Made by a program: the position numbers and the translations under genes
Notes under the pieces: model-generated
Told to the model about the DNA's origin: nothing
Database searches by the model: none
What the model saw: only the letters and a program-made list of their open reading frames with translations
Part shown: in pieces, positions 48,976 to 64,000 of the stretch
How the letters are laid out: the number at the start of each line of letters is the position of its first letter
Numbering within the stretch: the first letter of the stretch is position 1
NCBI GenBank assembly: GCA_963711565.1
Contig: CAVQEQ010000002.1
Location: 192,001 to 256,000, forward strand
DNA: 64,000 nucleotides
Reading direction: 5' to 3'
Source of the DNA: an uncultured delta proteobacterium
Lineage (GTDB): Bacteria > Desulfobacterota > Binatia > Binatales > Binataceae

Positions 48976-49428
48976 TTACTCGTCGCTGGAAGTCAGCGTC
49001 AGTACCGGGCACGCAGCCCGGCGCACGATCTGTTCAGCCACGCTGCCCAGGAGGAACTGGGTAAGCCCGTGGTGCCCGTGAGTATTTAGAACTATTAGAT
49101 CGGTGTGCAGGTCGGTCGCCACCTCTAACACGACCTTGGAAGTCTCGCCTCCAACGTCGAAGACTCGCGTGATGGCTTCGAATTTGAGTCCGGCCAGCTT
49201 TTCGGCGGCCATAGCCTGGAGCTTGAGACACGCGTCGGCCTCGGCGCGATTCTTCGCGGAGGCGACTACAGTTTCGGGCGCGTCAACCGCCTCTATCAAC
49301 GCCACGACATGCAGCAGGTAGATCGTTGCGTCCATGTCCCTGGCGATCTTCGAGGCCAGCGTCAGCGCTGCCTGCTCAGAATCTTCGAACTGTATGGGAC
49401 AGAGAATTTTCTTGAACGGATAAGACAC
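48976..49428 (-). CDS. Universal stress protein
   Basis: [17 protein letters not shown]...[18 protein letters not shown]. Confidence 0.92.
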
Positions 49429-49564
49429 TAGCCAAATATATCAGTTTCGCGGAGAACCCTGAATTAAATCTGCGAGCCGAAGTGGTGGCGAGTGAATCTG
49501 TTGCATCGACTGGCGAATTTCCTTGACGGCAGTGGGGCTATGCTGGGACTATAGATTCGCAAAT

Positions 49565-49619
49565 GGTGATGGGGTTCACCGATTAACCGCTCTCTGTTTC
49601 AGAGGCTGATGACCCCTGC
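49565..49619 (+). ncRNA. Fluoride (crcB) riboswitch 1
   Basis: GGTGATGGGGTTCACC-gattAACCGC-tctctg/cagag-GCTGATGACCCCTGC: P1, pseudoknot GGGGT/ACCCC and the conserved core. Confidence 0.93.
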
Positions 49620-49644
49620 GGAAAAAGCCGTAGGGGTTTATTTT
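49612..49644 (+). terminator. Expression-platform terminator of riboswitch 1
   Basis: ACCCCTGCGG-aaaaag-CCGTAGGGGT followed by TTATTTTT; overlaps the aptamer 3' end. Confidence 0.85.
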
Positions 49645-49686
49645 TGGAAGAGCGCCAGGGTTTCTTCAATAAGAGGATACGATACC

Positions 49687-51360
49687 ATGCCTGAAAATCT
49701 TAGAAGTAAGACGATTACCGAGGGCGTCCAACGTTCACCGAATCGGTCAATGCTGCGCGCCGTTGGCTTCACCGACAGTGATTTTCAGAAGCCAATTATC
49801 GGTATCGCCAACGCGTACAGCACGATCACCCCATGCAACATAAGTCTGAACGTACTCGCGCAGCGCGCAGAGTCCGCACTCAAGACGTCGGGTGCGATGC
49901 CGCAGGTATTCGGCACCATCACGGTTAGCGATGGCATAGCGATGGGAACCGAGGGCATGAAGTACTCGCTGGTATCGCGCGAGGTGATCGCGGATTCCAT
50001 CGAGACGGCGTGCAGCGCTCAGTCGATGGACGGCGTAGTTGCGATCGGCGGTTGCGACAAGAACATGCCGGGCTCGATGATGGCGATCGCGCGGATGAAT
50101 ATTCCAGCGATCTTCGTTTACGGTGGAACGATCAAGCCGGGACACTACAACGGCCGCGATCTGACGATCGTGAGCGCCTTCGAAGCAGTCGGGGAATTCA
50201 GCGCTCACAAGATCGGCGAGAAAGAATTGCTCGAGGTCGAGCGCCGCGCGTGTCCTGGGGCGGGTTCGTGCGGCGGGATGTATACCGCCAACACAATGTC
50301 GTCGGCGATCGAGGCGATGGGCATGAGCCTGCCGTATTCGTCAACGATGGCGGCCGAAGATTCCGAGAAGGCCGACAGTGCCGCGAAATCGGCGCAAGCC
50401 GTTGTCCAGGCGGTGCGCACGCAATTGCTGCCGCGACAAATCATGACGCGCAAGGCGTTCGAGAATGCGATCTCAGTCGTGATGGCGGTGGGAGGATCGA
50501 CCAACGCCGTACTCCATCTGCTCGCGATGGCTCACACGGCTGAAGTGCCGCTGACTATCGACGACTTCGAGACGATTCGTCAGCGCGTACCGGTCCTGTG
50601 CGACATGAAGCCGTCGGGGCCTTACGCCACGACTGACTTGCACCGCGCGGGCGGGATCCCGCAGGTGATGAAAATGCTCCTGAACCGAGGGCTGCTGCAC
50701 GGTGACGCGATCACCATCACCGGAAAAACGATTGCGGAGAATCTGGCCGAAGTCCCCGATGCGCCGGGTACGGATCAGGCGGTCATTCATCAGTGGAATA
50801 AGCCGGTCTATCCGCAGGGTCATCTGGCAATCATGCGGGGGAACCTGGCAACTGAAGGCGCCGTCGCAAAGATCACCGGGATAAAGAGCCATCACATTAC
50901 GGGACCGGCACGAGTGTTCGAAAGCGAGGAAGACTGCCTGAGTTCGATCCTCGCGGGCAAGATCAAAGCCGGTGACGTGGTCGTGATTCGCTACGAAGGG
51001 CCGAAGGGCGGACCTGGGATGCGCGAGATGCTGTCACCGACCTCGGCGATCATCGGCGCCGGGCTCGGCGATGCGGTCGGACTCATAACCGACGGCCGTT
51101 TCTCGGGCGGTACCTATGGTTTGGTTGTGGGACACGTCGCCCCGGAAGCACAGGTGGGCGGACTGATCGCGCTGGTGCACGAAGGGGACTCGATCACGAT
51201 CGATGCGAACAAACATCTGCTTACGCTGAATGTGCCCGAAGCCGAGATCGCGCGGCGCCGGTCCGAATGGCGAGCGCCTAAGCCCCGATACACCCGAGGC
51301 GTGCTGGCGAAGTACGCGGCTCAAGTGTCATCGAGTAGCATCGGGGCCGTGACGGACTAA
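49687..51360 (+). CDS. ilvD: Dihydroxy-acid dehydratase
   Basis: [52 protein letters not shown]. Confidence 0.96.
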
Positions 51361-51412
51361 CGGGGTCGCCGCACATAGCCCTCTAACCGCGTGGGCATAG
51401 AAGTGTCCTTGG

Positions 51413-52946
51413 ATGACCTTCCACAGCATACTCTTCGAAGGTGCTAGCAACGGTGTCTCGGCGGTACGACCAGCCGCGCCCGATTCTTTTGTCGATCTCA
51501 ATCTCGATCAGGTCGTGGCCGCTATCACCGCCGGCAAGGAAGAATATGACCTGAAACCTTTTTTCTATGCCTCCCTGCATGACGCCGACGCGATCAACTA
51601 CCGGCAGGAGGTCATGCAAGCGCTCGAAGAATGTTCCTCTCGCCGATAGCATCAGGGCCTTCGCCGCGCAGATGCATTCGATGCGGCAGTATCTGGCTCA
51701 ATCCGAGGAACTCGCGGGTCGCCAGAAAGAGCGATGGTTCCTCGATGCTGTCGATATCTATTGCGACGGGGTGACAGAACTGGTCAACAACCTATCGACT
51801 ACAGACCTGACGTCGCGTGGGCTCCTGGCTTTTCGGGAGTACGCGACCCAGTATGCTGCATCCGATCCCTTCGCGCGGCTCTTGAAGGAAACGAAAGAGC
51901 TTAAGTCCGCTCTCGCTTCAATCGAGTACTGCGTCCTTATCAACAGTCCCAACGTCCAGGTCCGCAAATACGAGGGCGAGCCCGACTACAGTGCGGATGT
52001 CCAGTCAACCTTCGAAAGGTTCAAGCAGGGTACGGTCACGGACTACAACTTCAAGTTTTTCGATTCACCTAAAATGGACCACATCGAGGAGAAGATTTTC
52101 GACCTGGTCACCCGGCTCTATCCCGAAATATTCAGTCGACTGCAATCTTACTGCGCGAGCCACAAAGATTATCCAGACTATGCGATCTTCACGTTCGACA
52201 AGGAGATCCAGTTCTATGTCGCCTACCTGGAGCATATCGCGCGATTCAAAAACGCCGGGTTGGATTTCTGTTATCCGCGAATGGACAGGACCTGCAAGGA
52301 AGTTTACAGTTCTGCGGGCTTCGATCTCGCGTTGGCCGGCGCTCTTATAAGTGAACGGGCCATCCCTGTGAGCAATGACTTTCATCTCAAGGATCGCGAG
52401 CGGATGATCGTCGTCTCCGGTCCGAATCAAGGTGGCAAGACGACCTTTGCCCGTACCTTCGGGCAGTTGCACTATCTGGCGAGCCTCGGCTGTCCGGTGC
52501 CGGGAAAAGAAGCGCGCCTGTTTCTCTTCGACCAGATCTTTACGCATTTTGAACGAGAGGAAAATGCAAACAACCTGCGCGGCAAGCTACAGGACGATCT
52601 CCTTAGAGTGCATCAAATTCTCGAGCGCGCAACCCCTGACAGCATCATCATCATGAATGAGATTTTCACCTCCACTACACTGCAAGACGCCGTCGTTCTC
52701 AGCAAGAAGATTGCCGCCAGGATAATGAAATTGGACCTCCTGTGCGTATGGGTGACGTTCGTCGAAGAGTTGGCGTCATTGAGCGAGCAGACCCTGAGCA
52801 TGGTCAGTACTGTAGTGCCCGAGAGTCCGGCGCTGCGGACTTATAAGATTGTCAGGCGCCCCGCCGACGGGCTTTCCTACGCAATGTCGATCGCGGAGAA
52901 ATATCGGGTCACATACAAGACGCTCAAGGAACGACTCGGCTCGTGA
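51413..52946 (+). CDS. MutS domain V-only ATPase A (frameshift near 51628)
   Basis: MTFHSILF...DLNLDQ...YRQEVMQALE joins NVPLADSIR after a one-base shift. Walker A GPNQGGKT, THFERE, GKLQDDL, IIMNE. Confidence 0.85.
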
Positions 52947-54439
52947 AGGCGCATCTCCTGTACAGGGATCATGATTTCGATTTGGAGCGGCCGTTGCCCT
53001 GGAATGAAGTCGCACTGGTTAAGGATCTGTCGCTGAGCACTCTGTTCGCCGCGATGGCGCGGGGCGACCAGTTGGTCTCTGAAGTCAGCAAGCGAGTTAT
53101 CCTGCTGGGCTTCGATAACGGCCTCGAGACGATTCGCTATCGCCAGAGCGTTTTGCGGGACTGCCTCAACCAACCGTTCGTTGTCCGCGAGCTTTACGCG
53201 GTCGCAGTCGATGCGATGGAGAAGCAGAAGAGGCACTATCTTGGAATCTTCGCCCGCTACCCCGACTCGGTCCTTCGCCATTCGATCGAACTGATGGAAA
53301 CCTTCCTCAGCATGCTGAAGACCCTGCGGAAGATCACGGATTCGCACGCTGACAAGTTCGTTTCAGAGGGATGGACGGCGTTTTACGCGATGTTGCGGCG
53401 TGAGCTTGATGACGACTATTTTGCTCTCGTCGAGAATCACCTGGAACGATTGAAATTCCGCGGTGGGGTATTACTCAGCGCCAGGCTGGGTAAGGGGAAC
53501 AAGGGCGATCCCTATGTCCTCCGTGAACCGCCCTATCGAAAAGAAACGTTCCTGACGCGGCTCTTCCGACAACAATCGTCTGCTTACAGCTTCACGCTCC
53601 ATCCACGCGAAGAAAGTGGATTCAGGGCGCTATCAGAGTTACGAGACCGAGGGATAGGACTTGTCGCCAATGCGCTGGCCCGATCTACCGGACACGTGCG
53701 CAGTTTTTTCGACATGCTGCGGACGGAGCTAGCCTATTATGTGGGTTGCGTGAACCTGCACGAGGAGCTTAACCGAAAGAGAGTTTCGATGTCTTTTCCG
53801 TCGCTCGCAACCGCGGATGAGCGCAGGCTGTCCTTTCAGGGATTGTGCGATGCCTGCCTGGCGCTGAACATGGAGCAGCGGATAGTCGCCAACGACGCCG
53901 ACGCTGACAAGCGAACCGTTGTGTTCGTCACCGGCGCCAACCAGGGCGGCAAATCGACTTTTCTACGAAGCATAGGATTGGCCCAGTTGATGACGCAGTG
54001 CGGAATGTTCGTGTCCGCCGAGTCGTTATGCTCCAGCATCCGCGATGGACTCTTCACCCATTACAAAAGGGAGGAAGATACCGCCATGAAAAGCGGCAAG
54101 CTCGACGAGGAGCTCAGCCGCATGAGTGACATCGTTGACCATATCACTCCGCATTCCATGATCCTGTTCAATGAGTCCTTTGCGGCGACCAACGAGCGCG
54201 AAGGCTCGGAGATTGCCGGCCAGATCATATCCGCGCTCCTGGAAAAGCGGGTCAAGATTGTTTTCGTGACCCACCTTCATGAGTTAGCCCGCGCCTTCTA
54301 TGAGAGAGACAAGGCCGAGGTCTTGTTCTTACGGGCGGAAAGGCAGACCGACGGTGTCCGAACTTACAAGTTGCTCGAAGGAGAGCCGCTCCAGACCAGC
54401 TTCGGTGACGACTTGTACCAAAGCATTTTTGATGGCTAA
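52943..54439 (+). CDS. MutS domain V-only ATPase B
   Basis: GANQGGKST, THYKREED, SGKLDEEL, ILFNESF, FVTH; overlaps the stop of the partner gene. Confidence 0.9.
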   Translation: MKAHLLYRDHDFDLERPLPWNEVALVKDLSLSTLFAAMARGDQLVSEVSKRVILLGFDNGLETIRYRQSVLRDCLNQPFVVRELYAVAVDAMEKQKRHYLGIFARYPDSVLRHSIELMETFLSMLKTLRKITDSHADKFVSEGWTAFYAMLRRELDDDYFALVENHLERLKFRGGVLLSARLGKGNKGDPYVLREPPYRKETFLTRLFRQQSSAYSFTLHPREESGFRALSELRDRGIGLVANALARSTGHVRSFFDMLRTELAYYVGCVNLHEELNRKRVSMSFPSLATADERRLSFQGLCDACLALNMEQRIVANDADADKRTVVFVTGANQGGKSTFLRSIGLAQLMTQCGMFVSAESLCSSIRDGLFTHYKREEDTAMKSGKLDEELSRMSDIVDHITPHSMILFNESFAATNEREGSEIAGQIISALLEKRVKIVFVTHLHELARAFYERDKAEVLFLRAERQTDGVRTYKLLEGEPLQTSFGDDLYQSIFDG

Positions 54440-56190
54440 CCTTCGAGCGTTGAAGGATGGTCCGACGCCGGCTTGACCTTTGCGCGAAGACGCTCCAGAC
54501 GTTCGAGACTCGATTTGACGGCCTCGGTTCCGGCAGCGCGCGTGGCCTCGGCGCGAGCCAGTGTGCTTTCGGCGGTGGTGCGCAATTCATTGAGCATGCC
54601 GCGGATCTCCGCCTCCAGGCGGCGCCCGCTCTCACGAACGATCACGTCGAAATCGTTCAGAATTCTTGTGCTGTTGAGCGACAGCAACGTGACCAGATAT
54701 CGCGCGACTTTCTTTTCGACGATTTCCAGCTGGCTGCGCCGGGTCCTGAAGATTCCGATGATCCGCTCCGCGACCGTCTGCCGCGGAAAACCGAAATGCT
54801 CGCCGAAGTAGAGCTTGCCCTTCACACGGAACCCGGACTCCTCGCTCACCGCCGACGGCAAATCAGACAGAAGCGAATCGCCGGACTCGGCAACCCGCTT
54901 CAGAAAATCGTTGGCGAGCTGCACGAAGCGGTGGGCGGACTCGCGGTACATCGCCTCGGCGGCGGGACGCTCCTCTTCGAGCCATTGATTGAGCAGCCGG
55001 CGTGAAATGGATTGCGCGATCTCCGTCGCGCAGTCATAAAGTGGCGACCCGCGCCCTTCGGTCGCTTGAGCGATTGCCTCGTGAAACTCTTGGCGGGCAG
55101 CCGGGATTGTGCGAGCAAGAAAGCTGTCGCGACGCTCGGTGCATCGGCGACTGACCCGTTCTTGCTCGGCCTTGAACAAATGGCTCAGATCGCCAAGCGA
55201 ACGTTCGGCGTCGGCGATCACCTCCCGCAGGCGTGACGCGATACGCTGCGACTCTTCAGCCGGCGCAATCAGCGCGTCGTGGAGGTTGTCGATTTCGCGG
55301 AGCAGGTTGCCGGTGAGCCGCTGGATGCCGCGGTTCTCCGCCGCTTCCACGAGGGCCGGGCCGGATTCGCGCGCGAGCCGTTCAAGCTCTGCCAACAGGG
55401 CCGGACCGTCGCGCGATGGACCCGCGGCGTTCAGCCATTCGGCTGCGCTGACCTGGAACACGCGTCCCACCTCGCGCTTGATCTTCTGGGCCAAAGTACG
55501 TCGCGCAAATTCAATCGCCTCGCTACACTCACTGGCGGTGAGGCGGTCCGCCTTGCTGAGCACGAACACTATCTCCTGCAGCTGGGATGCGAGCTCTTCA
55601 AGAAGAATTAGTTCCTCACCCGATATCGGCGGATCGGCGCCAAGCACGATCAGGGCGGCGTCGATGTGAGGAACGAAAGCCCTGGTGACCGCAGTATTGC
55701 CGGCGAAGACTGAGCCGATACCGGGCGTGTCCACGAGGCACATGCCGGAAGCAAGCAGCGCAGCGGGCACAAAAACTTCGACGGCGGCGACACCTCGAGA
55801 GTTTTCCGGGTTGCGCTCCTCGGAGACGTAGTCGGAGGTAGATTGCACCGAGACCTGCTGGCGCGATCCGTTTTCGAAGTGAACTTCAGCGTGAAGAATA
55901 GGCCCATACCGAACGATGGTTACGATCGCAGTGACGGGCACGACGCCGGTGGGCAGGACGGAGGTTCCGATCAACGCATTGAGGAGGCTCGACTTGCCGC
56001 GTTTGAACTGGCCGAGACAGGCGACAAAGAAGCGCTTATCGGCAACGCGCTCGGCCAGCGCGCGGGCCTCGCGCTCGACGCGCTGGCTATCCAGCTCGCT
56101 CGCGACGTCAATTAACGATAGGAGCGGAAGATGGCGCGAGATTCGTGCGTTACCCGCGAACTTCCCGGATGTATATTGCTCTTCGGGCAA
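54436..56190 (-). CDS. Dynamin-like GTPase
   Basis: G1 GQFKRGKS, G2 PVT, G3 DTPG, G4 SKAD; long helical C-terminus. Confidence 0.9.
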   Translation of the reverse strand: MPEEQYTSGKFAGNARISRHLPLLSLIDVASELDSQRVEREARALAERVADKRFFVACLGQFKRGKSSLLNALIGTSVLPTGVVPVTAIVTIVRYGPILHAEVHFENGSRQQVSVQSTSDYVSEERNPENSRGVAAVEVFVPAALLASGMCLVDTPGIGSVFAGNTAVTRAFVPHIDAALIVLGADPPISGEELILLEELASQLQEIVFVLSKADRLTASECSEAIEFARRTLAQKIKREVGRVFQVSAAEWLNAAGPSRDGPALLAELERLARESGPALVEAAENRGIQRLTGNLLREIDNLHDALIAPAEESQRIASRLREVIADAERSLGDLSHLFKAEQERVSRRCTERRDSFLARTIPAARQEFHEAIAQATEGRGSPLYDCATEIAQSISRRLLNQWLEEERPAAEAMYRESAHRFVQLANDFLKRVAESGDSLLSDLPSAVSEESGFRVKGKLYFGEHFGFPRQTVAERIIGIFRTRRSQLEIVEKKVARYLVTLLSLNSTRILNDFDVIVRESGRRLEAEIRGMLNELRTTAESTLARAEATRAAGTEAVKSSLERLERLRAKVKPASDHPSTLEG

Positions 56191-56199
56191 GGGATTTTC

Positions 56200-56730
56200 T
56201 TACCTGTCAGACTTGCGCGATGCTCGGGCGATTGCATCGCTGATGTACTCGAAGGTCTCGTCGAGTTCCATCCAGTGAGAGATTTTCTTCCGATCGCCTT
56301 CTTCAAGGTCCTTGTAGTGATTGAAGAAATGGCTGATCTGCTCATATAGAATGGCCGGGAGATCGGCCAGGGTGCGAACATTTATGTAGTAGGGGTTCAA
56401 TCTGTCCACGGGGACGGCGATGATCCTCTGGTCGTCGTCTTCCATCGCAAGCCCACCGATCGGGCGGGATCGAACGACCGCGAGCGGGACAATTGGGACC
56501 TGCGAGACGACCAGCACGTCGCACGGATCCCCATCGCGACACACAGTGTGCGGAATGAATCCGTAATTGGCGGGATAGTGCATCGGGGTATGCAGGAACC
56601 TGTCCACGAACAGCGAACCTGAAGCCGGATCGAACTCGTACTTGATCGGCGCGCCCTCTTGAGGAATCTCGATTATCACGTTGACCTCGGACGGAGGGTT
56701 GTCGCCGATTGAAATTTTGCGGATATCCAT
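56200..56730 (-). CDS. ppa: Family I inorganic pyrophosphatase (divergent)
   Basis: IEIP, KYE, VDRFL, YPANYGFIPHT, DGDPCD, YKDLE. Start MDIRKI preceded by GGGAG. Confidence 0.9.
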   Translation of the reverse strand: MDIRKISIGDNPPSEVNVIIEIPQEGAPIKYEFDPASGSLFVDRFLHTPMHYPANYGFIPHTVCRDGDPCDVLVVSQVPIVPLAVVRSRPIGGLAMEDDDQRIIAVPVDRLNPYYINVRTLADLPAILYEQISHFFNHYKDLEEGDRKKISHWMELDETFEYISDAIARASRKSDR

Positions 56731-56763
56731 AAAAAAACTCCCACGGCGCCGCGCCGCAGGAGT
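56731..56763 (-). terminator. Expression-platform terminator of riboswitch 2
   Basis: ACTCCTGCGGCG-cgg-CGCCGTGGGAGT followed by a T run; the stem also contains the ppa RBS. Confidence 0.85.
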
Positions 56764-56809
56764 CATCGGCCGCTCGACGAGAGCGGCAATTTTGGTGGAC
56801 TCCACCACC
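56756..56809 (-). ncRNA. Fluoride (crcB) riboswitch 2, G-C variant
   Basis: GGTGGTGGAGTCCACC-aaaattGCCGC-tctcgtcgagcg-GCCGATGACTCCTGC; pseudoknot GGAGTC/GACTCC. Confidence 0.85.
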
Positions 56810-56856
56810 TTCGAGATCAAACTAGCAGAGCGATCGGTGCGCAGCCAAGCTTTCAC

Positions 56857-57183
56857 TCACTCCAGAAGATTGGGCAGAAGACCGCGGCGAAAAGCAGTGG
56901 CGAAGTCATAAAGGGCATCGGGCATAATAACGGACATCAGAAGAGAATCGGCGAATGAGACTCCCCAGAGTTTGGTAGCGGCTGAGGCGTGCCACGGATA
57001 GCAGAACACGATGCGACGCTCTCGGAGAATGACCAACGCGGTCATAGCCTTCGCGAGCGGGCATCGGCTGTCGGCGTCTTCCAGCGAACCGGGCGGAAAC
57101 GATTCGAGCGGCGGTTCGCCGATTTCGCGTCTTACGGCGTTGACGAGACGCAGCGCCGAGGTAACCAGTTCCGTATATTCCAT
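56857..57183 (-). CDS. Hypothetical protein (108 aa) under riboswitch 3
   Basis: MEYTELVTSALRLVNAVRREIG...RCPLAKA...FATAFRRGLLPNLLE; GGAG directly upstream of the ATG. Confidence 0.7.
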   Translation of the reverse strand: MEYTELVTSALRLVNAVRREIGEPPLESFPPGSLEDADSRCPLAKAMTALVILRERRIVFCYPWHASAATKLWGVSFADSLLMSVIMPDALYDFATAFRRGLLPNLLE

Positions 57184-57205
57184 GACTCCGCGATCAATCG
57201 CGATC

Positions 57206-57260
57206 CAGGAGTCATTGGCCCGGCCCGGCGGCCTAAGCGGGTTCGGCGGACTCCACCGCC
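57206..57260 (-). ncRNA. Fluoride (crcB) riboswitch 3, G-C variant, translational
   Basis: GGCGGTGGAGTCCGCC-gaacccgcttagGCCGCC...GGGCCAATGACTCCTG; a TATTGT -10-like hexamer lies 4 nt upstream. Confidence 0.78.
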
Positions 57261-57365
57261 GTCTACAATAGAGATATCCGGTTTGGCGTGACGGTGAATT
57301 GGTCTTAACCGTATTGACCATCACCTTTGGTGATCTTACCTCAATCTCTGGCAAACTGGATGCCG

Positions 57366-57983
57366 ATGACGAAAATTATCTTGATCCGCCACGGTAACGT
57401 GGAAGGTCTTAAGCCCGAGCGCTTTCGCGGACGCGCCGATCTCGAGCTGACGCCATTTGGTGTGGCCCAAGCCACCGCTACTGCTCAGAGGATCGCGGCG
57501 GCGTGGCACCCCTGCGCCATCTTTACAAGCCCTCTACGCCGATGCGTTTCGACCAGCAGGCCGATTGCCGACGCTTGCGGAGTACCCAGTGAGACGATCG
57601 ACGGACTTGTCGACCTCGACTACGGCGCTTGGCAGTGGAAAACTCACGACGAAGCGCGGCGCGAATCGCCGCAGCTATTCGACGCATGGCGCAGTGCGCC
57701 GCAGCTGGTCCGTTTTCCAGAGGGTGAATCATTGCAAGATCTGGTCGCGCGAACGTCAGACGCGTTGCGGTTCGTGCTGAACAAATACGCCGGGAACACC
57801 GTCGTTCTCGTCGGACATGACAGTGTCAACAAGGCTCTGCTCCTGCAGCTCATAGACCAGCCCCTCTCCGCCTATTGGCGCCTCGCGCAGGACTGTTGCG
57901 CAATCAACGAAATCGACATCGAGGAGACCACGATACGGGTGTCCCGGATCAACGAAACGCATCACCTCATTGGCGTGACCTGA
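57366..57983 (+). CDS. Histidine phosphatase (phosphoglycerate mutase) family protein
   Basis: LIRHG, SPLRRC, DYGAWQ, FPEGES, VGH. Confidence 0.92.
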   Translation: MTKIILIRHGNVEGLKPERFRGRADLELTPFGVAQATATAQRIAAAWHPCAIFTSPLRRCVSTSRPIADACGVPSETIDGLVDLDYGAWQWKTHDEARRESPQLFDAWRSAPQLVRFPEGESLQDLVARTSDALRFVLNKYAGNTVVLVGHDSVNKALLLQLIDQPLSAYWRLAQDCCAINEIDIEETTIRVSRINETHHLIGVT

Positions 57984-58057
57984 ATCGCAAACGCGAGCCC
58001 CAATGCTTCGCGGCGTTGACTCCCGAGCCAGATAGGTTATTTGATATAGTCGCAGAC

Positions 58058-58112
58058 GGTGATGGGGTTCCGCCGCTAACCGCTCCCGCTTGAGTGAGCT
58101 AATGACCCCTAC
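58058..58112 (+). ncRNA. Fluoride (crcB) riboswitch 4
   Basis: GGTGATGGGGTTCCGCC-gctAACCGC-tc...gaGCTAATGACCCCTAC, upstream of DUF190-crcB. Confidence 0.93.
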
Positions 58113-58181
58113 TCTGGTGTTGAGCACAGGTAGGGGCTTTTCTTTTGAAAGGGCTCTGCCGAAAGGTAGAGGGCCTTTTTT
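58106..58181 (+). terminator. Two tandem terminator-like hairpins after riboswitch 4
   Basis: CCCCTAC...GTAGGGG-CTTTTCTTTT, then CTCTGCC-GAAA-GGTAGAG...CCTTTTTT. Confidence 0.75.
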
Positions 58182-58272
58182 GATCGCAGCAGCTTGCAAT
58201 TTGCTACGCTCTCGGAAGAACCGTTCGCAGGGGCGGGCCTGCGCTTTCACAACGCCAGGAGGGCAGTGATCG

Positions 58273-59553
58273 ATGTTCACCGGAAGGGCCAAGCAGGTGA
58301 CGATCTTCATCGGCGAAACGGACCAATATCATCACCAGGCGCTGTACATGACGATCATCGAGATGCTCCGGCGTGAGGGATGCAGCGGTGCGACCGCCAC
58401 TCGGGGCGTTGCCGGGTTTGGGGCTTCATCGATGATTCACACGGCGGCTATCCTTCGGCTGTCCTTCGATCAGCCAATCGTGATCACGGTCGTGGATCGC
58501 CCCGAGCGGATCGATCGCATTCTCGGTCCGCTGCGCGAAATGGCTCCCAGCGCCCTCATCACGGTTCAGGAGGTTGAAGTCGTCCAATCGGGTGCTCCCT
58601 TCAAAGAGGGTCTACCCGACCTGAAGGTCTCGGAAGTGATGCGCCGAGAGGTCGCGACAGTGCATGCCGACAGTCCAATCACCCAGGTTATTGAGCTGCT
58701 GCTCGATAAGGACTTCACTGCGGTGCCTGTCGTCGACGACCAGGGCAAGGTGGTCGGGATGGTGAGCGACAACGATCTGCTCTTGCGCGGTGGGATGAAC
58801 GTCACGATTAGCTTGAAAAAGGCCACCGATTTGGACTACGTGCGCGAGCTTCACGAGTCGCTCGAGAACCCGAACCGTAAAGTGTCTGAGGTGATGACGC
58901 GCGAGGTCGTGACGACTGCTCCGGATACCATTCTCGCCCGAGCGGCCAGAGTGATGGTCGATAAACATCTCAAGCGCCTGCCGGTCGTGGACGGCGACGG
59001 AAAGTTGGTGGGTATCCTTGGACGCCTGGACGTGTTGAACACGATCGCGGCGGTCCATCTGCCTGAGTGGCATCCCGAGGCGCATGCCGTCGGGGCGCAG
59101 GCTACGGTGGCCGAGGTGATGAGCCGTGACGTTCCCACCGTCCATGAAAATGCCACGGTGGAACAAATTTTCGATCTGCTCGTTTCGTCAACGCACAAGC
59201 GCGTGATCGTCGTGGACGACAAGCGGCATGTAGTCGGGATCGTCGCCGACTCGGATCTCATTTCCAAAGTGAGCCGTGAGAGCTGGCCGGGGGTAATGGA
59301 AATCCTCATCTCGAAGGTCCCGCTCGGCCGGGCCAGCGTGGAGGCGCGCAAGCACATTCAGAAGTTGCGCGCCCGTTTCGCAAAAGACCTGATGACGCGT
59401 GATGTGGTTACGGTTCGCGAGAAGATGCCGGTCGCCAGCGCCTTGGCGCTCTCTGCGGAAAAGCGGGTTAAGCGGCTGCCTGTGGTCGACGGCGACGGTG
59501 AGTTGGTTGGAATCGTCGGCCGCACCGAGATGTTGAGGGCGTTGCTCGCCTGA
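58273..59553 (+). CDS. DUF190 (PII-like) + 4xCBS domain protein
   Basis: N-terminal IFIGETD...GATATRGVAGFG...LSFDQPIVITVVD (DUF190), then two CBS pairs (VPVVD, KRLPVVD). Confidence 0.9.
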   Translation: MFTGRAKQVTIFIGETDQYHHQALYMTIIEMLRREGCSGATATRGVAGFGASSMIHTAAILRLSFDQPIVITVVDRPERIDRILGPLREMAPSALITVQEVEVVQSGAPFKEGLPDLKVSEVMRREVATVHADSPITQVIELLLDKDFTAVPVVDDQGKVVGMVSDNDLLLRGGMNVTISLKKATDLDYVRELHESLENPNRKVSEVMTREVVTTAPDTILARAARVMVDKHLKRLPVVDGDGKLVGILGRLDVLNTIAAVHLPEWHPEAHAVGAQATVAEVMSRDVPTVHENATVEQIFDLLVSSTHKRVIVVDDKRHVVGIVADSDLISKVSRESWPGVMEILISKVPLGRASVEARKHIQKLRARFAKDLMTRDVVTVREKMPVASALALSAEKRVKRLPVVDGDGELVGIVGRTEMLRALLA

Positions 59554-59580
59554 AGAAGAGGAGGAGGGATTCGGCGGCTG

Positions 59581-59952
59581 ATGGGAGTGTTGTTTGTCGC
59601 GGTAGGCGGAGCCATCGGATCCGTCACTCGCTATCTGGTCGGTGGATGGATTGCCGCTCGTTTTGGCAGTGCTTTTCCATACGGGACGCTGGTAATCAAT
59701 GTCACCGCGAGTTTCATCATCGGCTTTTTCCTGGCGTTCGCTCAGGAGCGAGTGAGCTTGAATCCGAACTGGCGCCTTTTTGTCGCGGTCGGATTCGTTG
59801 GCGGTTACTCGACGTTCTCGACCTTCGAGTATGAGGGGATTCGATTATTGCAGGAGCGGGAGATGCTGGTCGGTTCGGTCTATCTCATTGGGAGTGTGAT
59901 CGCGGGCGGCGTAGCCGCGATAGGCGGGATAGCACTCGGCAGTTGGGTTTGA
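59581..59952 (+). CDS. crcB: Fluoride channel Fluc/CrcB
   Basis: GGAIGSVTRY, FPYGTLVINV, GFVGGYSTFSTF. Confidence 0.95.
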   Translation: MGVLFVAVGGAIGSVTRYLVGGWIAARFGSAFPYGTLVINVTASFIIGFFLAFAQERVSLNPNWRLFVAVGFVGGYSTFSTFEYEGIRLLQEREMLVGSVYLIGSVIAGGVAAIGGIALGSWV

Positions 59953-59972
59953 TTTCGGCGAGCGGGCTTGAG

Positions 59973-60000
59973 TTGACTGTGATAAAAGCACTGCTAAACT
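59973..60000 (+). promoter_or_regulatory. Sigma70-type promoter
   Basis: TTGACT-N16-TAAACT with an extended TG, 15 nt upstream of riboswitch 5. Confidence 0.55.
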
Positions 60001-60015
60001 TCTGTTGACAGAGTT

Positions 60016-60072
60016 GGTGATGGGGTTCACCGCCGCAACCGCCCTTTCCTGAGCAGGGCTGATGACCCCTAC
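60016..60072 (+). ncRNA. Fluoride (crcB) riboswitch 5
   Basis: GGTGATGGGGTTCACC-gccgcAACCGCCCT...AGGGCTGATGACCCCTAC, followed by the hairpin ACCCCTACC...GGTAGGGGT-TTGATT (60065-60100). Confidence 0.93.
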
Positions 60073-60205
60073 CGAGGCGTAAGCTGGTAGGGGTTTGATT
60101 AGTTCGGATTCCCTACCTGGTCATTGGAACTCTCGCGCGCGGGTCGCGCCTGCCGGAGATCATCGCGCGAGAAATAACGCCGCGCAGGAAAGAGCGTAGC
60201 GGACG

Positions 60206-61156
60206 ATGGCGCGTTCGATCGGGTTCAACCTGCTTCAGGTGCTGTTCGTGGTGGCGCTCGCCCCGCTGGTGGCGGGGGTGTTGTCGCGTCTGAAAGAGAT
60301 CGTGCAATCGCGGCGCGGTCCCAGCGTTTTCCAGCCGTATCGCGACCTTCGCAAGCTATTCAATAAAGACGAAGTCGTCTCGGAGCAGGCTTCCTGGATT
60401 TTCCGCGTGACGCCTCACGTCGTCTTTGTCGCGCCGATCTTCGTCGCCACGCTGATTCCCGTTCTAACCAGCTATCCGCTCTTCTTCGCGTTCATGGGCG
60501 ACATGCTGGGCGGAGGGTTTGTGCTGGCATTGGGCGGCTTCTTCGCGACGCTCGCGGCTGTGGATACAGCCAATCCTTACGGTCCGATGGGCGCGAGCCG
60601 CACGCGCATGGTCGGCTTCCTGGCTGAGCCGGTCTTCATGATCGTTTTTTTCACCGTCTCGTTCGTTGCGGGCTCCACCATTCCCTACATCGTTCAGCAG
60701 CATTGGGTCACTCCGCTGTCGAACTTCTTCGCGCCGTCGCATGTGCTGCTGGTGATCGCCTTCGTGATGCTCATTCTTGCTGAAGCCGGGCGGATCCCAG
60801 TTGACAATCCAACCGGTCATTTCGAGCTCGCGATGATCGACGAATCGAAAAGTCTCGAGTACTCGGGCACCGGCATGGCGCTGATGAAATGGGGCGGTCA
60901 GATGAAGCTGCTGGTGCTGATGTGCATTCTGCTCAACGTACTGGTTACCCCGTGGGGACTGGCAAGCGACAAGAGCACTCTTGAGGTCCTTTTGGCGGGA
61001 CCGCTCGTGTTGTTCAAAATCGGGCTCTTCCTATTGGTGTTGGTGGTGATTGAATCCTCGCTGTCCAAACTGCGGCTCTTTCGGGTCAGCGAGTTCCTGG
61101 GGGCTGCGTTCGTAACCTCGGTGGTCGCGATGATCACCGGACTCCTGAACTTCTAG
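60206..61156 (+). CDS. hyfC: HyfC/HycD (NuoH-like) membrane subunit
   Basis: SRRGPSVFQPYRDLRKLF, GASR, EAGRIPVDNP..HFELAMI. Confidence 0.88.
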   Translation: MARSIGFNLLQVLFVVALAPLVAGVLSRLKEIVQSRRGPSVFQPYRDLRKLFNKDEVVSEQASWIFRVTPHVVFVAPIFVATLIPVLTSYPLFFAFMGDMLGGGFVLALGGFFATLAAVDTANPYGPMGASRTRMVGFLAEPVFMIVFFTVSFVAGSTIPYIVQQHWVTPLSNFFAPSHVLLVIAFVMLILAEAGRIPVDNPTGHFELAMIDESKSLEYSGTGMALMKWGGQMKLLVLMCILLNVLVTPWGLASDKSTLEVLLAGPLVLFKIGLFLLVLVVIESSLSKLRLFRVSEFLGAAFVTSVVAMITGLLNF

Positions 61157-61164
61157 GGGCTGAG

Positions 61165-61845
61165 ATGGCGAACTCCTACGCGCTCCTGACTTCGCTGAAC
61201 GGACTGGCTGCGGGGCTGTTTCTGATGAGTTCGTTCGGGCTTGCGGCGACGCGGCAGATGCAGGGGTGCCAGCGATTCTATATCACTGAGTCGATCTGCC
61301 TCGTGGTGTCCGCGCTATTGCTCGGCATTGGCTTGCACGCGCCCGACCTGCTGGCGGTCGCCGCGCTCGACGCGATAATGAAGCCCATCGTGATTCCGTA
61401 TCTGCTTAAGCGCACGGTGCCTGAGGAGATTTTCAGAAGACGTGAGATCGATCAGGTCCTGAACATTCCCAGTTCGCTGCTGATTGCGCTTGCCCTGACC
61501 TTGCTTGCCTTCTACCTGAGCGGATTTCTCCCGCCCGCAGCCGGAAGCATTGCGGCAATCAATTTGCCCGTCGGGCTCGCCGGACTGTTTATCGGAGTCT
61601 ACACGCTCACGGTGCGGCGCGAGGCCGTCCCGCAACTGATTGGCATCTTCGGCATCGAGAATGGCGCTCTGCTTTGCGGCTTCGCCATCGCGCCCACTTT
61701 GCCACTGGTCATTGAGATGGCTTTCCCGTTCGACATGCTGATCATCGCGCTCGTGATCGGAATCTTGACGCGGATAACGCAGGAACGAGTGGGAACGACC
61801 GAAGTCGGCGCGTTCGCAGCGCTCAAGGAAGGCGCCAGCAAATGA
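61165..61845 (+). CDS. hyfE: HyfE-like membrane subunit
   Basis: KPIVIPYLL, QLIGIFGIENG, IEMAFPFD. Confidence 0.85.
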   Translation: MANSYALLTSLNGLAAGLFLMSSFGLAATRQMQGCQRFYITESICLVVSALLLGIGLHAPDLLAVAALDAIMKPIVIPYLLKRTVPEEIFRRREIDQVLNIPSSLLIALALTLLAFYLSGFLPPAAGSIAAINLPVGLAGLFIGVYTLTVRREAVPQLIGIFGIENGALLCGFAIAPTLPLVIEMAFPFDMLIIALVIGILTRITQERVGTTEVGAFAALKEGASK

Positions 61846-63290
61846 TACTGCTTGCCATCCTTGCCGTGCCGCTGATTGCCGCGCTGCTCTCGTGCTTGCC
61901 AGTCGGACGCCGGGTAGCGCCGGCGGTCACACTGACATCCTGCACGGTCGTGCTCGCGATGGTGATAGCAGCGGCGATGGGCGTGGTCGCTCGGGGCTCA
62001 GTTGTCGCAATTGCCAATTGGGTCTCTATCGACGGCCTGAGTGCGTTGATTCTGCTGCTGGTCGCGACGATCGGGAGCACCGCCGCACTTTTCTCGTGGG
62101 GTTACATGGCGCACGAACCGAGCACGCCGCATCTGCGCCGTTACTACGCGAATTACAATCTGTTCGTCTTCGCGATGCTCTCGGTGCCCATGCTGGCGGA
62201 GCCGAACCTGGTTTGGACGGGAGTGGAAATGACGACCATCCTCTCCGTTTACCTTATAGCGTTCGAGAATACGCGCGAGGCACTGGAAGCCGCGTGGAAG
62301 TACTCGGTGTTGACGATCATGGGAGGAGCGATAGCACTCCTCGGGTTTCTGGCGCTGTTCGCCGCGACACGGGGTCAGTACCCCGGCGGCGCCTATACAT
62401 GGCAGACGCTGATCGAGTTGGCGCCGCGAGTTTCGCCGGGCGTGCTCGCGACCGCCTTTGTTCTGATCCTTGTGGGGTTCGGTGCAAAGGCCGGGTTGGT
62501 TCCATTGCACACCTGGCTACCCGACGCGCACAGTCAGGCGCCGAGTCCAATCTGCGCGCTGCTCTCCGGCATCAAGACCACCGTCATCCTGTACGTAATA
62601 TTGCGCCTGGTGCCGGTGCTTAACGCCTCGGGAAAGGTCGACGTCGATGGATGGGCAATGGTCGTTGGGCTGTTTTCGGTAGGTATCGCGGCGTTTCTCA
62701 TCATCCAGGTAACCGACTATAAGCGCCTGTTCGCATTCTCCACGGTCGAACACATGGGCATTATCCTTACCGCCGCCGGCATCGGCGGCGCCGCCGGGCA
62801 CTACGGCGCGGTGTATCAAATACTCAATCACGCACTGACAAAGTCATTCTGTTTCTTCGCGGCCGGAGCAACTCTGCTCGTCGTCGATACACGACAGATA
62901 GCTGAAGTGCGGGGTTTGATACGAACCTCACCGTCGGCCGGCGCTGCCCTGCTATTCGGAGGAATCGCGATCGCCGGGGCGCCACCGCTCGCAGTGTTCC
63001 TGAGCGAATTCTCGATTCTGCGCTCCGGAATGGCGGAGCAACACTACCTTGCAAGCGGCTTGCTCGCCGCGTTCGTTATCGTCGCCTTTTTCGGAATTCT
63101 CTATCACCTTAATCTTATGGTCTTCGGACAAGCCTCGTCGCCCACCGTCGATAGCATTCCGGTAAGACTGCCGCGAAGCTGCGTGCTGACCCTTATTCTG
63201 GCCGCAGCGCCAATCATCATACTCGGGGTCTATATGCCGGAGCCGCTTCACAGGCTGCTCGAGATGGCGGCCGACGGCCTGTCGAGGTGA
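61842..63290 (+). CDS. hyfF: HyfF-like proton-translocating antiporter subunit
   Basis: EALEAAWKY, GFGAKAGLVPLHTWLPDAHSQAPSP, KRLFAFSTVEHMG. Confidence 0.9.
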   Translation: MILLAILAVPLIAALLSCLPVGRRVAPAVTLTSCTVVLAMVIAAAMGVVARGSVVAIANWVSIDGLSALILLLVATIGSTAALFSWGYMAHEPSTPHLRRYYANYNLFVFAMLSVPMLAEPNLVWTGVEMTTILSVYLIAFENTREALEAAWKYSVLTIMGGAIALLGFLALFAATRGQYPGGAYTWQTLIELAPRVSPGVLATAFVLILVGFGAKAGLVPLHTWLPDAHSQAPSPICALLSGIKTTVILYVILRLVPVLNASGKVDVDGWAMVVGLFSVGIAAFLIIQVTDYKRLFAFSTVEHMGIILTAAGIGGAAGHYGAVYQILNHALTKSFCFFAAGATLLVVDTRQIAEVRGLIRTSPSAGAALLFGGIAIAGAPPLAVFLSEFSILRSGMAEQHYLASGLLAAFVIVAFFGILYHLNLMVFGQASSPTVDSIPVRLPRSCVLTLILAAAPIIILGVYMPEPLHRLLEMAADGLSR

Positions 63291-63293
63291 ACG

Positions 63294-64000
63294 ATGCCCG
63301 TCGTACTGACTCAAGTGGTCGAGGAGGCCAGGGCACGCTGGGCCGGCAGAGTTAGCGCGACTATCAATGATCGCGTCGATTCCGCGTGTCAGCTTGAATG
63401 TGAACCGGCAGCTCTACCAGAGATTTGCGAGTGGTTGTTTTCAAGTCTGCGCTACAGTTTCGGCAGTCTTATCGTCGAGCAGCGAGCGCGATGGGACCTG
63501 CGATACGTCTTCTACGGCGAACATGACGCTGGTTGGGTGCACGCGCTTACTCATTCGTCCAGTTCCGAAAATCGTGTACCCAGCATCAGCAAACAGATTC
63601 ACGCCGCCGATTGGCACGAACGCGAGGTTGAGGACCTGTTTGGACTGGACTTCGAGGGACATCCGCGTCTCGGCGATTTCGTCCTTCACAATGACGCCTG
63701 GCAAGAGGGCGTCAATCCGATGCGCAAGAGCTTTGATGCGGCTCAGCCTGTACTGCATCGTGAGCCCGACCTGAATTGGAAGCCTCGCCAGATCGTCGAG
63801 GAGACCGGCTCTTTCCTCATGCCGGTAGGACCGGTCTTTTCCGCCGCAACCGGACCGGTACACTTTCAGCTCGAGACGGTCGGCGAGGATGTCATCCGCG
63901 CGTGGCCGCGCCTCTTCTACGCATACCGCGGTCTCGAGAAGATCGCCGAGGGCCGGCGGGCTGACGATGTCGTGCTTATAGCGGAGCGTATCAGCGGAAC
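63294..64000 (+). CDS. HyfG/HycE-like NuoC-NuoD fusion, Ehr large subunit (partial)
   Basis: Manual translation: MPVVLTQ...AADWHEREVEDLFGLDFEGHP...MPVGPVF...HFQLETVGE...LFYAYRGLEKIAEG...AERISG. Runs off the window end. Confidence 0.85.
   Translation, partial: MPVVLTQVVEEARARWAGRVSATINDRVDSACQLECEPAALPEICEWLFSSLRYSFGSLIVEQRARWDLRYVFYGEHDAGWVHALTHSSSSENRVPSISKQIHAADWHEREVEDLFGLDFEGHPRLGDFVLHNDAWQEGVNPMRKSFDAAQPVLHREPDLNWKPRQIVEETGSFLMPVGPVFSAATGPVHFQLETVGEDVIRAWPRLFYAYRGLEKIAEGRRADDVVLIAERISG

Follow-up and report, generated by a model that had tools for sequence, protein, structure and literature searches.

Why should six fluoride riboswitches stand together within 18.3 kb, and what do the genes behind them have in common? 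The question is raised by a stretch of 64,000 nucleotides (nt; in the following, the window) of the Binataceae contig CAVQEQ010000002.1, which was analyzed together with the 4.84-Mb genome it belongs to. A preliminary description of the window had placed five aptamers of the fluoride-sensing crcB class in it and had read them as a multi-layer fluoride response. In a search with the Rfam model RF01734 all five were present at their places (the coordinates given earlier refer to the initial G of P1, which lies 9 nt within the Rfam match), and the count had to be raised, as a sixth aptamer lies 3.8 kb past the window end. Apart from these six, no RF01734 match was found in the genome, with 150 of 720 first-look candidates scored. 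Judged from its sequence, the locus is a fluoride regulon with several switches, which is conserved and belongs to a known kind; it includes cargo that was not found described, and the link of fluoride switches to genes for dynamin-like proteins is its strongest new element. The six switches, each heading its own unit, are predicted to turn on a layered fluoride defense, which we regard as the probable reading. The switches and their units are:

49556-49625 (with hairpin 49556..49645), plus strand: aptamer 1, 48.5 bits, overlapping terminator, hairpin z -5.0; heads unit 1 (ilvD, mutS4A, mutS4B; plus strand)
56750-56818 (with hairpin 56728..56818), minus strand: aptamer 2, 36.9 bits, G-C tertiary variant; heads unit 2 (ppa, dyn1; minus strand)
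57199-57269 (with hairpin 57180..57269), minus strand: aptamer 3, 23.6 bits (E 0.007), G-C variant, hairpin z -4.3; heads unit 3 (orphan gene of 108 amino acids (aa); minus strand)
58049-58118 (with hairpins 58049..58180), plus strand: aptamer 4, 49.7 bits, overlapping hairpin and second terminator-like hairpin; heads unit 4 (DUF190-CBS, crcB; plus strand)
60007-60078 (with hairpin 60007..60105), plus strand: aptamer 5, 49.9 bits, overlapping hairpin z -4.4; heads unit 5 (six-gene Ehr operon; plus strand)
G000:C2:259816-259876 (window-equivalent 67816-67876), plus strand: aptamer 6, 34.4 bits
G000:C2:259816-266655 (L007 5817-12656), plus strand, past the window: aptamer 6 with unit 6 (DUF6062-like protein, metallophosphoesterase, HEAT protein, dyn2, MFS, 138-aa protein)

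The gathering cut-off of RF01734 (34 bits) is passed by five of the six aptamers. Of the five Rfam matches expected in the window, four exceed it and the fifth, aptamer 3 (57269, minus strand), falls short; its P1, pseudoknot, A37 and U45 are intact, its orthologues score 26.6-39.3 bits, and it is treated here as a presumably compensated variant and working fluoride riboswitch. The pseudoknot, the long-range pair and the A37/U45 linchpin are present, with the long-range pair A5-U35, named for the fluoride aptamer in PMC8004769, replaced by G-C in the three lowest-scoring aptamers. Over 40 aligned aptamers this position reads A-U in 31 and G-C in 9 rows without any mismatch; all G-C rows come from this genome and Binataceae-type loci (L017-L024) and thus represent few independent events. 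In the same alignment, every cell (100%) of the pseudoknot is paired, and three of its five pairs show double changes. The claim that each aptamer has a recognizable expression platform holds, since a terminator-like or ribosome-site hairpin overlaps each. In all six leaders the 3' pseudoknot strand doubles as the 5' hairpin arm (isolated hairpins z -2.5 to -5.0), and hairpin and pseudoknot exclude each other in the 5' leader as befits such a platform. A terminator scanner called 49611 (plus), 56764 (minus) and 58154 (plus), i.e., behind three of the five aptamers in the window, and the terminator of aptamer 2 ends at the ppa start codon. The hairpin of aptamer 3 has no U-run and covers a GGAG just ahead of the orphan ATG, the ribosome-binding site. 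Matches to snoRNA models in the Rfam search were treated as chance. These aptamers served as the training set for an additional RNA model (R1), whose scores on the training rows were not counted as evidence; counts obtained with it are lower bounds, because it recovered 7 of 10 Rfam matches in the plasmid locus L150.

The aptamers, their competing hairpins, the gene identities and the recurrence of aptamer-gene links can be read directly in the DNA. Stabilization of the pseudoknot by fluoride, which blocks termination, is the established mechanism of the class, and three layers of fluoride defense are likewise established: export, enzyme dosage and pH homeostasis (PMC11139923, PMC2864571, PMC5533749). 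Following the class mechanism, fluoride would enter as hydrogen fluoride (HF) at low pH and stabilize the pseudoknots, the terminators would be blocked or, at the orphan gene, the ribosome site freed, and all units would switch on together. The layers of the defense would then be export, spare Mg enzymes, probably ion pumping and probably dynamin-based membrane repair, an arrangement that we consider rather probable. In the first layer, the Fluc channel would export fluoride, with its DUF190-CBS partner as a possible regulator. In the second, extra copies of pyrophosphatase (PPase) and IlvD, in relatives also of enolase and MetK, would outrun inhibition by dosage; for export combined with spare enzymes, an experimentally tested precedent exists (PMC5533749). 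The third would be formed by the Ehr complex, which has antiporter subunits of the Mrp type and lacks a NiFe site; it likely pumps ions and could offset acidification and loss of the proton-motive force; other relatives place a Na+/H+ antiporter behind the same kind of switch. In the fourth, the IniA/BDLP-like GTPases would bind the membrane by the trunk tip, remodel it and limit the leak of protons or HF. This fourth layer, which leans on a structural model, is the least certain and proposed tentatively. Because the dynamin family stands right behind aptamers in many lineages, membrane remodeling may nonetheless be an overlooked layer of fluoride defense, a suggestion made with reserve. Equally cautious is the joint proposal that BDLP/IniA-like dynamins are core fluoride effectors via membrane remodeling, that IlvD is a target in vivo, and that the MutS4 pair and the orphan protein rescue poisoned enzymes. 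The multi-layer regulon including ilvD, dynamin and orphan, as conceived in the preliminary description, is borne out insofar as other genomes, too, link each of the three to an aptamer of its own.

Two dynamin genes belong to the regulon:

54436..56190, minus strand: dyn1, PF00350, BDLP/IniA fold, 10 nt behind ppa
in unit 6 (plus strand), past the window: dyn2, second dynamin, 827 aa

The idea that each aptamer stands ahead of a different unit applies to all six units, although dyn1 itself has no aptamer of its own and follows ppa. The protein combines a Dynamin_N GTPase domain, in which the G1, G3 and G4 motifs are retained, with a long helical neck and trunk, and is dynamin-like by this architecture. 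Its structure model (pLDDT 84.7) has BDLP (2j69) and IniA (6j72) as top Foldseek matches (E 2e-18); the trunk features no predicted transmembrane helix, and its tip is an aromatic, amphipathic-looking stretch. Orthology to DynA or CrfC is not indicated, with 56 bits against a cut-off of 1600 and 27 against 1146, respectively. BDLP of Nostoc and IniA of Mycobacterium (PMC6715688) share with dyn1 the G1/G3/G4 motifs, the helical neck-trunk fold, the trunk-tip loop and the missing transmembrane anchor, at 16-18% identity, and the trunk tip of dyn1 takes the place of the IniA lipid loop. IniA is stress-induced (PMC6715688); control of BDLP or IniA by a fluoride switch was not found described in the literature consulted.

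Picked by the protein alone (E <= 1e-40, 26-43% identity), relatives of dyn1 occur in 37 of 300 genomes of the phylum. A same-strand aptamer lies at most 350 nt upstream of the dynamin gene in 28 of these 37, counted among genomes from the 22 families searched, and at most 3 kb upstream in 32. An aptamer is present anywhere in 36 of the 37 genomes versus 52 of 140 unselected phylum genomes, the two samples overlapping. Among the ten closest loci, dyn1 has its own aptamer in eight (seven of nine without G066). Among the 80 best metagenome loci out of at least 587 that were confirmed, inspected with up to 3 kb of flank, 38 hold an aptamer, 32 crcB and 56 either of them; the closest dynamin loci are labeled mostly Candidatus Binataceae or Deltaproteobacteria. 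On plasmids of Alpha- and Betaproteobacteria, too, a dynamin gene is adjacent to crcB or follows an aptamer. A link of dynamin to the fluoride riboswitch or to crcB was not found described in the literature searched, nor was one of ilvD to the riboswitch. Both words are missing from eight supplements of Weinberg 2010; its other additional files and Baker 2012 may list either gene. As a separate observation, a conserved protein of 94-95 aa without Pfam match follows the dynamin gene in three distant genomes (L054:6514-6795, L057:6852-7133, L059:6218-6502), twice ahead of a histidine phosphatase.

Several points weigh against the proposed defense. The membrane role of the dynamins comes from likeness of fold, at TM-scores of 0.33-0.34 between open and folded forms, and dyn1 of this window is an exception to the close loci in lacking its own aptamer. 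Four of the 37 phylum dynamins are unlinked, and one more, at a contig edge, cannot be judged. In the metagenome set, an aptamer stands directly ahead of the dynamin gene in 7 of 80 loci, which is due to the dynamin often following crcB and DUF190/CBS; 11 of 80 show none of the tested fluoride markers. The genomes are related, so that the counts suggest more independence than there is: G064 and G068 appear almost identical, and at the dynamin locus G522 is the same as G068. Further, the hairpins of aptamers 5 and 6 have weak U-runs and no terminator call (aptamer 6 lying beyond the scanned region), the clade ilvD genes of G005 and G371 have no aptamer, and fluoride inhibition of dihydroxy-acid dehydratase (DHAD) was not found described in the literature searched.

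The frequency of crcB beside the dynamins also allows them to be seen as servants of the exporter, which help with the insertion, clustering or turnover of Fluc or release vesicles loaded with fluoride or metal-fluoride, rather than as agents of general repair. The 32 of 80 metagenome loci with crcB in the dynamin flank, often as a one-strand series of crcB, DUF190/CBS and dynamin, are in line with this, as is crcB near the dynamin in G056 and G263. No crcB match was found in 18 of the 20 distant phylum loci fetched, however, and several of these have unrelated next genes, which makes this account unlikely.

The layer of spare enzymes is represented by two genes:

49687..51360, plus strand: ilvD, TIGR00110 with 789.6 bits versus a cut-off of 618, Synechocystis-like [2Fe-2S] DHAD
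56200..56730, minus strand: ppa, family I inorganic PPase, second copy, NF002317 over cut-off

Both have another copy in the genome, whereas crcB and the two dynamins are without match elsewhere (tblastn). The other ilvD, on C3, is 49% identical to that of the island. The best PDB match of the island IlvD is 6NTE (E 6e-286), and the equivalent of Cys48 is present in a PCN motif; a switch in cluster type between the copies is ruled out, as both carry the [2Fe-2S]-type cysteine. In a quick tree of 37 rows, with the frameshifted G061 copy and the split L098 match left out, the riboswitch-headed ilvD genes form one clade (SH-aLRT 98). According to Rfam, seven of nine rows of this clade (six distinct sequences) have an aptamer versus none of 17 loci outside it; 20 of 30 ilvD loci were given to Rfam, and R1 covered all 30 with the same outcome. 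In G069 and G380, the aptamer-led ilvD directly precedes DUF190-CBS and crcB. Since the island type is common among other genera of the family, extra dosage is likelier than a resistant isozyme, and the earlier notion that sensitive enzymes are replaced gives way to it. DHAD requires Mg2+ for carbanion stabilization (PMC9543379); the dosage layer predicts IlvD as a fluoride target, and we infer a fluoride sensitivity of DHAD. The aptamer-less genes of the island type adjoin a tyrosine-integrase-like gene in G005 (L009:14266-17584) and a tRNA in G371 (L152:1351-3171), possibly reflecting re-use after an integration event. Another ilvD type (~46% identical) was seen directly behind an aptamer-led dynamin in two unrelated loci (L064:3349-5016, L098:4841 onward) and may represent independent recruitment or chance adjacency.

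The island PPase features a 3-residue deletion in the metal-binding loop, between the equivalents of D97 and D102 (E. coli numbering), which recurs in all four members of its clade (three of three without G066). A fluoride-resistant PPase is not established by this, as two other PPases in aptamer-led units are without the deletion.

Metal-fluoride complexes inhibit P-loop NTPases, and all accessory genes, including the dynamins and the MutS4 pair, could be taken for extra NTP- or Mg-dependent enzymes inhibited in this manner, with no membrane layer at all. PPase and IlvD fit as second copies, and in the case of enolase and PPase an effect through dosage is the accepted explanation (PMC11139923, PMC5533749). 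Extended to the dynamins, the argument is improbable: tblastn found none outside the island and the family is as rare in the phylum as stated above (37 of 300 genomes), hence there is no housekeeping copy to back up.

Export and ion pumping are assigned to units 4 and 5:

58273..59553, plus strand: DUF190-CBS, a DUF190 (PII-like) domain fused to four CBS domains
59581..59952, plus strand: crcB / Fluc, TIGR00494 and PF02537 over cut-off, sole match in the genome
60206..64000, plus strand: Ehr operon genes 1-4, HyfC/NuoH, HyfE, HyfF and a large subunit without CxxC

The Ehr operon comprises six genes, the last two of which (NuoB/HycG-like and HyfB-like) lie past the window. It combines Hyf-like membrane subunits with a large subunit without Ni/Fe ligands; the missing CxxC fits Ehr (PMC6349859) and excludes a NiFe formate hydrogenlyase or group 4 hydrogenase. 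Ehr complexes are described with the same group 4 hydrogenase-like subunits, Mrp-like membrane subunits and lack of Ni/Fe ligands (PMC6349859), from which the island operon differs in having no formate dehydrogenase gene and in standing under a fluoride switch. For a DUF1329 gene at the right edge (L007:12841-14178), each of the 47 genus genomes searched contains several paralogous matches. The fourth cysteine motif of the Ehr small subunit (L007:2894-3637) reads GNPP or GDPP, kept in the seven full-length relatives aligned, at a site where a cysteine ligand motif is usual.

Ehr and the antiporters raise the possibility that the switches sense fluoride as a stand-in for acid stress, in which case these proteins and the dynamins would mainly counter low pH. 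The entry of HF is pH-dependent and the switches are commonly associated with Na+/H+ antiporters (PMC11139923), and the runs holding at least half of the stretch are all labeled soil metagenomes (seven rows); none of the listed holders is an RNA run. Given crcB and fluoride-sensitive enzymes in the same cluster, this is very unlikely as an account apart, and it largely overlaps with the layered fluoride defense that we prefer.

The remaining cargo of the window consists of the MutS-like pair and the orphan gene:

51413..52946, plus strand: mutS4A, MutS_V only, ATPase domain, split by a one-base frameshift near 51627-51629
52943..54439, plus strand: mutS4B, ATPase domain only, start overlapping the mutS4A stop (GTGA)
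56857..57183, minus strand: orphan 108-aa protein of a tight family, with its own aptamer 3

The 510-aa protein of a relative matches two frames of mutS4A, and contigs of three of four independent soil runs are without the extra base (the fourth does not cover the site), so the frameshift is probably an assembly error. Scores of 58-85 bits versus 400-642 and the absence of mismatch-binding and Smr domains argue against MutS1 and MutS2, and the tandem of ATPase-only genes with overlapping stop and start corresponds in its architecture to MutS4. MutS4A and MutS4B were likewise characterized as an adjacent pair with only the ATPase domain and the A stop overlapping the B start (Lin, Nei and Ma 2007, PMC2190696); a function in DNA metabolism was guessed there, while here the pair tracks fluoride switches. 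Relatives of MutS4B were identified in 8 of the 300 phylum genomes, and six of these genes are preceded by an aptamer at a distance of 1.6-1.8 kb (two of these aptamers are below cut-off, and one further gene lies at a contig edge). Without mismatch-binding domains a repair role is less likely, and the pair might, as a weak suggestion, be a protein-remodeling ATPase. A KamC-like reactivase was considered and set aside, as the matches to the profile were weak (43 and 70 bits versus a cut-off of 300) and nothing relevant was found in the literature searched.

The orphan protein has no Pfam, NCBIfam or PADLOC match and no usable Atlas match. Its 58 homologs are 47-99% identical, the three organism-bearing names among them are all Binataceae, and the orthologue has its own aptamer ahead in seven of eight loci. 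The structure model (pLDDT 93.9) gave no Foldseek match at E <= 0.001 and a best VIA Z of 4.2, results that establish neither a novel fold nor a role for the protein, and no such family with its own fluoride switch was found described in the literature searched. That the genes for the dynamin, the MutS-like pair and the orphan ride along in the island as passengers or form an anti-phage module there is hardly credible, as weak PADLOC matches to LeoA/LeoBC (E 1e-14 to 8e-6) and the reported limitation of phage spread by DynA (PMC8844932) are opposed by the aptamers dedicated to the dynamin gene, which stand immediately before it in 28 of 37 genomes.

Two neighboring genes complete the block:

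48976..49428, minus strand: usp, PF00582, divergent from aptamer 1, left edge of the block missing at this site in relatives
57366..57983, plus strand: histidine phosphatase, PF00300

The universal stress protein gene usp lies outside the conserved regulon in the ten closest loci, and no minus-strand aptamer was found ahead of it. Likewise, none was found directly ahead of the histidine phosphatase, relatives of which sit in fluoride units of G189 and G363 and on a Burkholderia multivorans plasmid.

The density of switches had been regarded as unusual, which is true in comparison with unselected kin and not with other island carriers. Any aptamer at all is found in 15 of 60 unselected relatives (at most 3) and in the 52 of 140 unselected phylum genomes mentioned above (at most 4). 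By contrast, all ten genomes with a close dyn1 have aptamers, and eight of them hold 5-12 at E <= 0.01 (seven of nine without G066, and with the near-identical G064 and G068 included), 12 being the highest number in Binataceae relatives. The units of these genomes combine the same modules in other arrangements, and enolase, YkoP-MetK, an AAA ATPase or a Na+/H+ antiporter-USP module come in addition. An aptamer precedes a YkoP-domain gene and metK (SAM synthetase), a further candidate for a Mg-dependent enzyme, in G064, G067 and G068 (L032:4990-7104, L034:4215-6558). A 586-aa zinc-ribbon-like and AAA_16 ATPase stands in aptamer-led units beside enolase or dyn1 (L032:3023-4780, L044:3063-4823). 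Within 31 kb, the B. multivorans plasmid (L150, NZ_CP143553.1 185800-216500) has 10 aptamers that exceed the cut-off; the cargo there comprises crcB, CLC, gpmA, cfa, two ppa, two eno and NUDIX in addition to a dynamin, a MutS pair and Ehr-type operons; a related cluster was seen on a B. cenocepacia plasmid (L149).

In the window, homology to the genus on the left flank ends at about 48972, and the block is missing at this site in all six relatives fetched, where the flanks are not adjacent. No integrase, nearby tRNA or transposase was seen at the island. A recent foreign origin is unsupported by composition, as the G+C content of the block is 0.593 versus 0.610 and 32% of 97 windows are equally deviant in tetramers.

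For bacterial dynamins, MutS4 and Ehr complexes, a small-ion switch directly ahead of the genes names a condition under which they matter, and their roles in vivo can be tested with NaF at low pH; if the proposal is true, bacterial dynamins and MutS4 gain a defined inducer and an assay. Moreover, additional layers of fluoride tolerance would be useful for the degradation and synthesis of organofluorines, which are limited by fluoride toxicity (PMC11139923).

Among known systems, Methylobacterium extorquens DM4 resembles the present genome in its many fluoride riboswitches, of which at least 10 are reported (PMC6785547, PMC11139923). The genomic island GI3 of Enterobacter cloacae FRM, a ppaC-uspA-eno-gpmA-crcB-orf5249 operon (PMC5533749), shares the island-borne, riboswitch-induced combination of export and spare sensitive enzymes as well as USP and a histidine-phosphatase-family gene. 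It differs in having one riboswitch, in flanking transposases, of which none was seen here, and, as far as described in that source, in making no mention of a dynamin, with no Ehr, MutS4 or ilvD among the six listed genes. The crcB-motif riboswitch itself (RF01734; Weinberg 2010, PMC2864571) shares the aptamer, the pseudoknot and the overlapping terminators, and its gene links to crcB, 'mutS', 'formate hydrogen lyase' and ion transport genes return here; the island adds six units over 18 kb, the G-C variant of A5-U35, and a cargo of dynamin, ilvD and orphan genes that was not found named there. Judging by gene content, the switch-led dynamin, the ilvD clade and the 108-aa orphan appear as the new components; for crcB, ppa, 'mutS' and 'formate hydrogen lyase', an association with the fluoride riboswitch is known, as the preliminary description had it. 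Two of these long-cited partners are read anew here: 'mutS' as other than a mismatch-repair protein, and 'formate hydrogen lyase' as a complex without the hydrogenase site.

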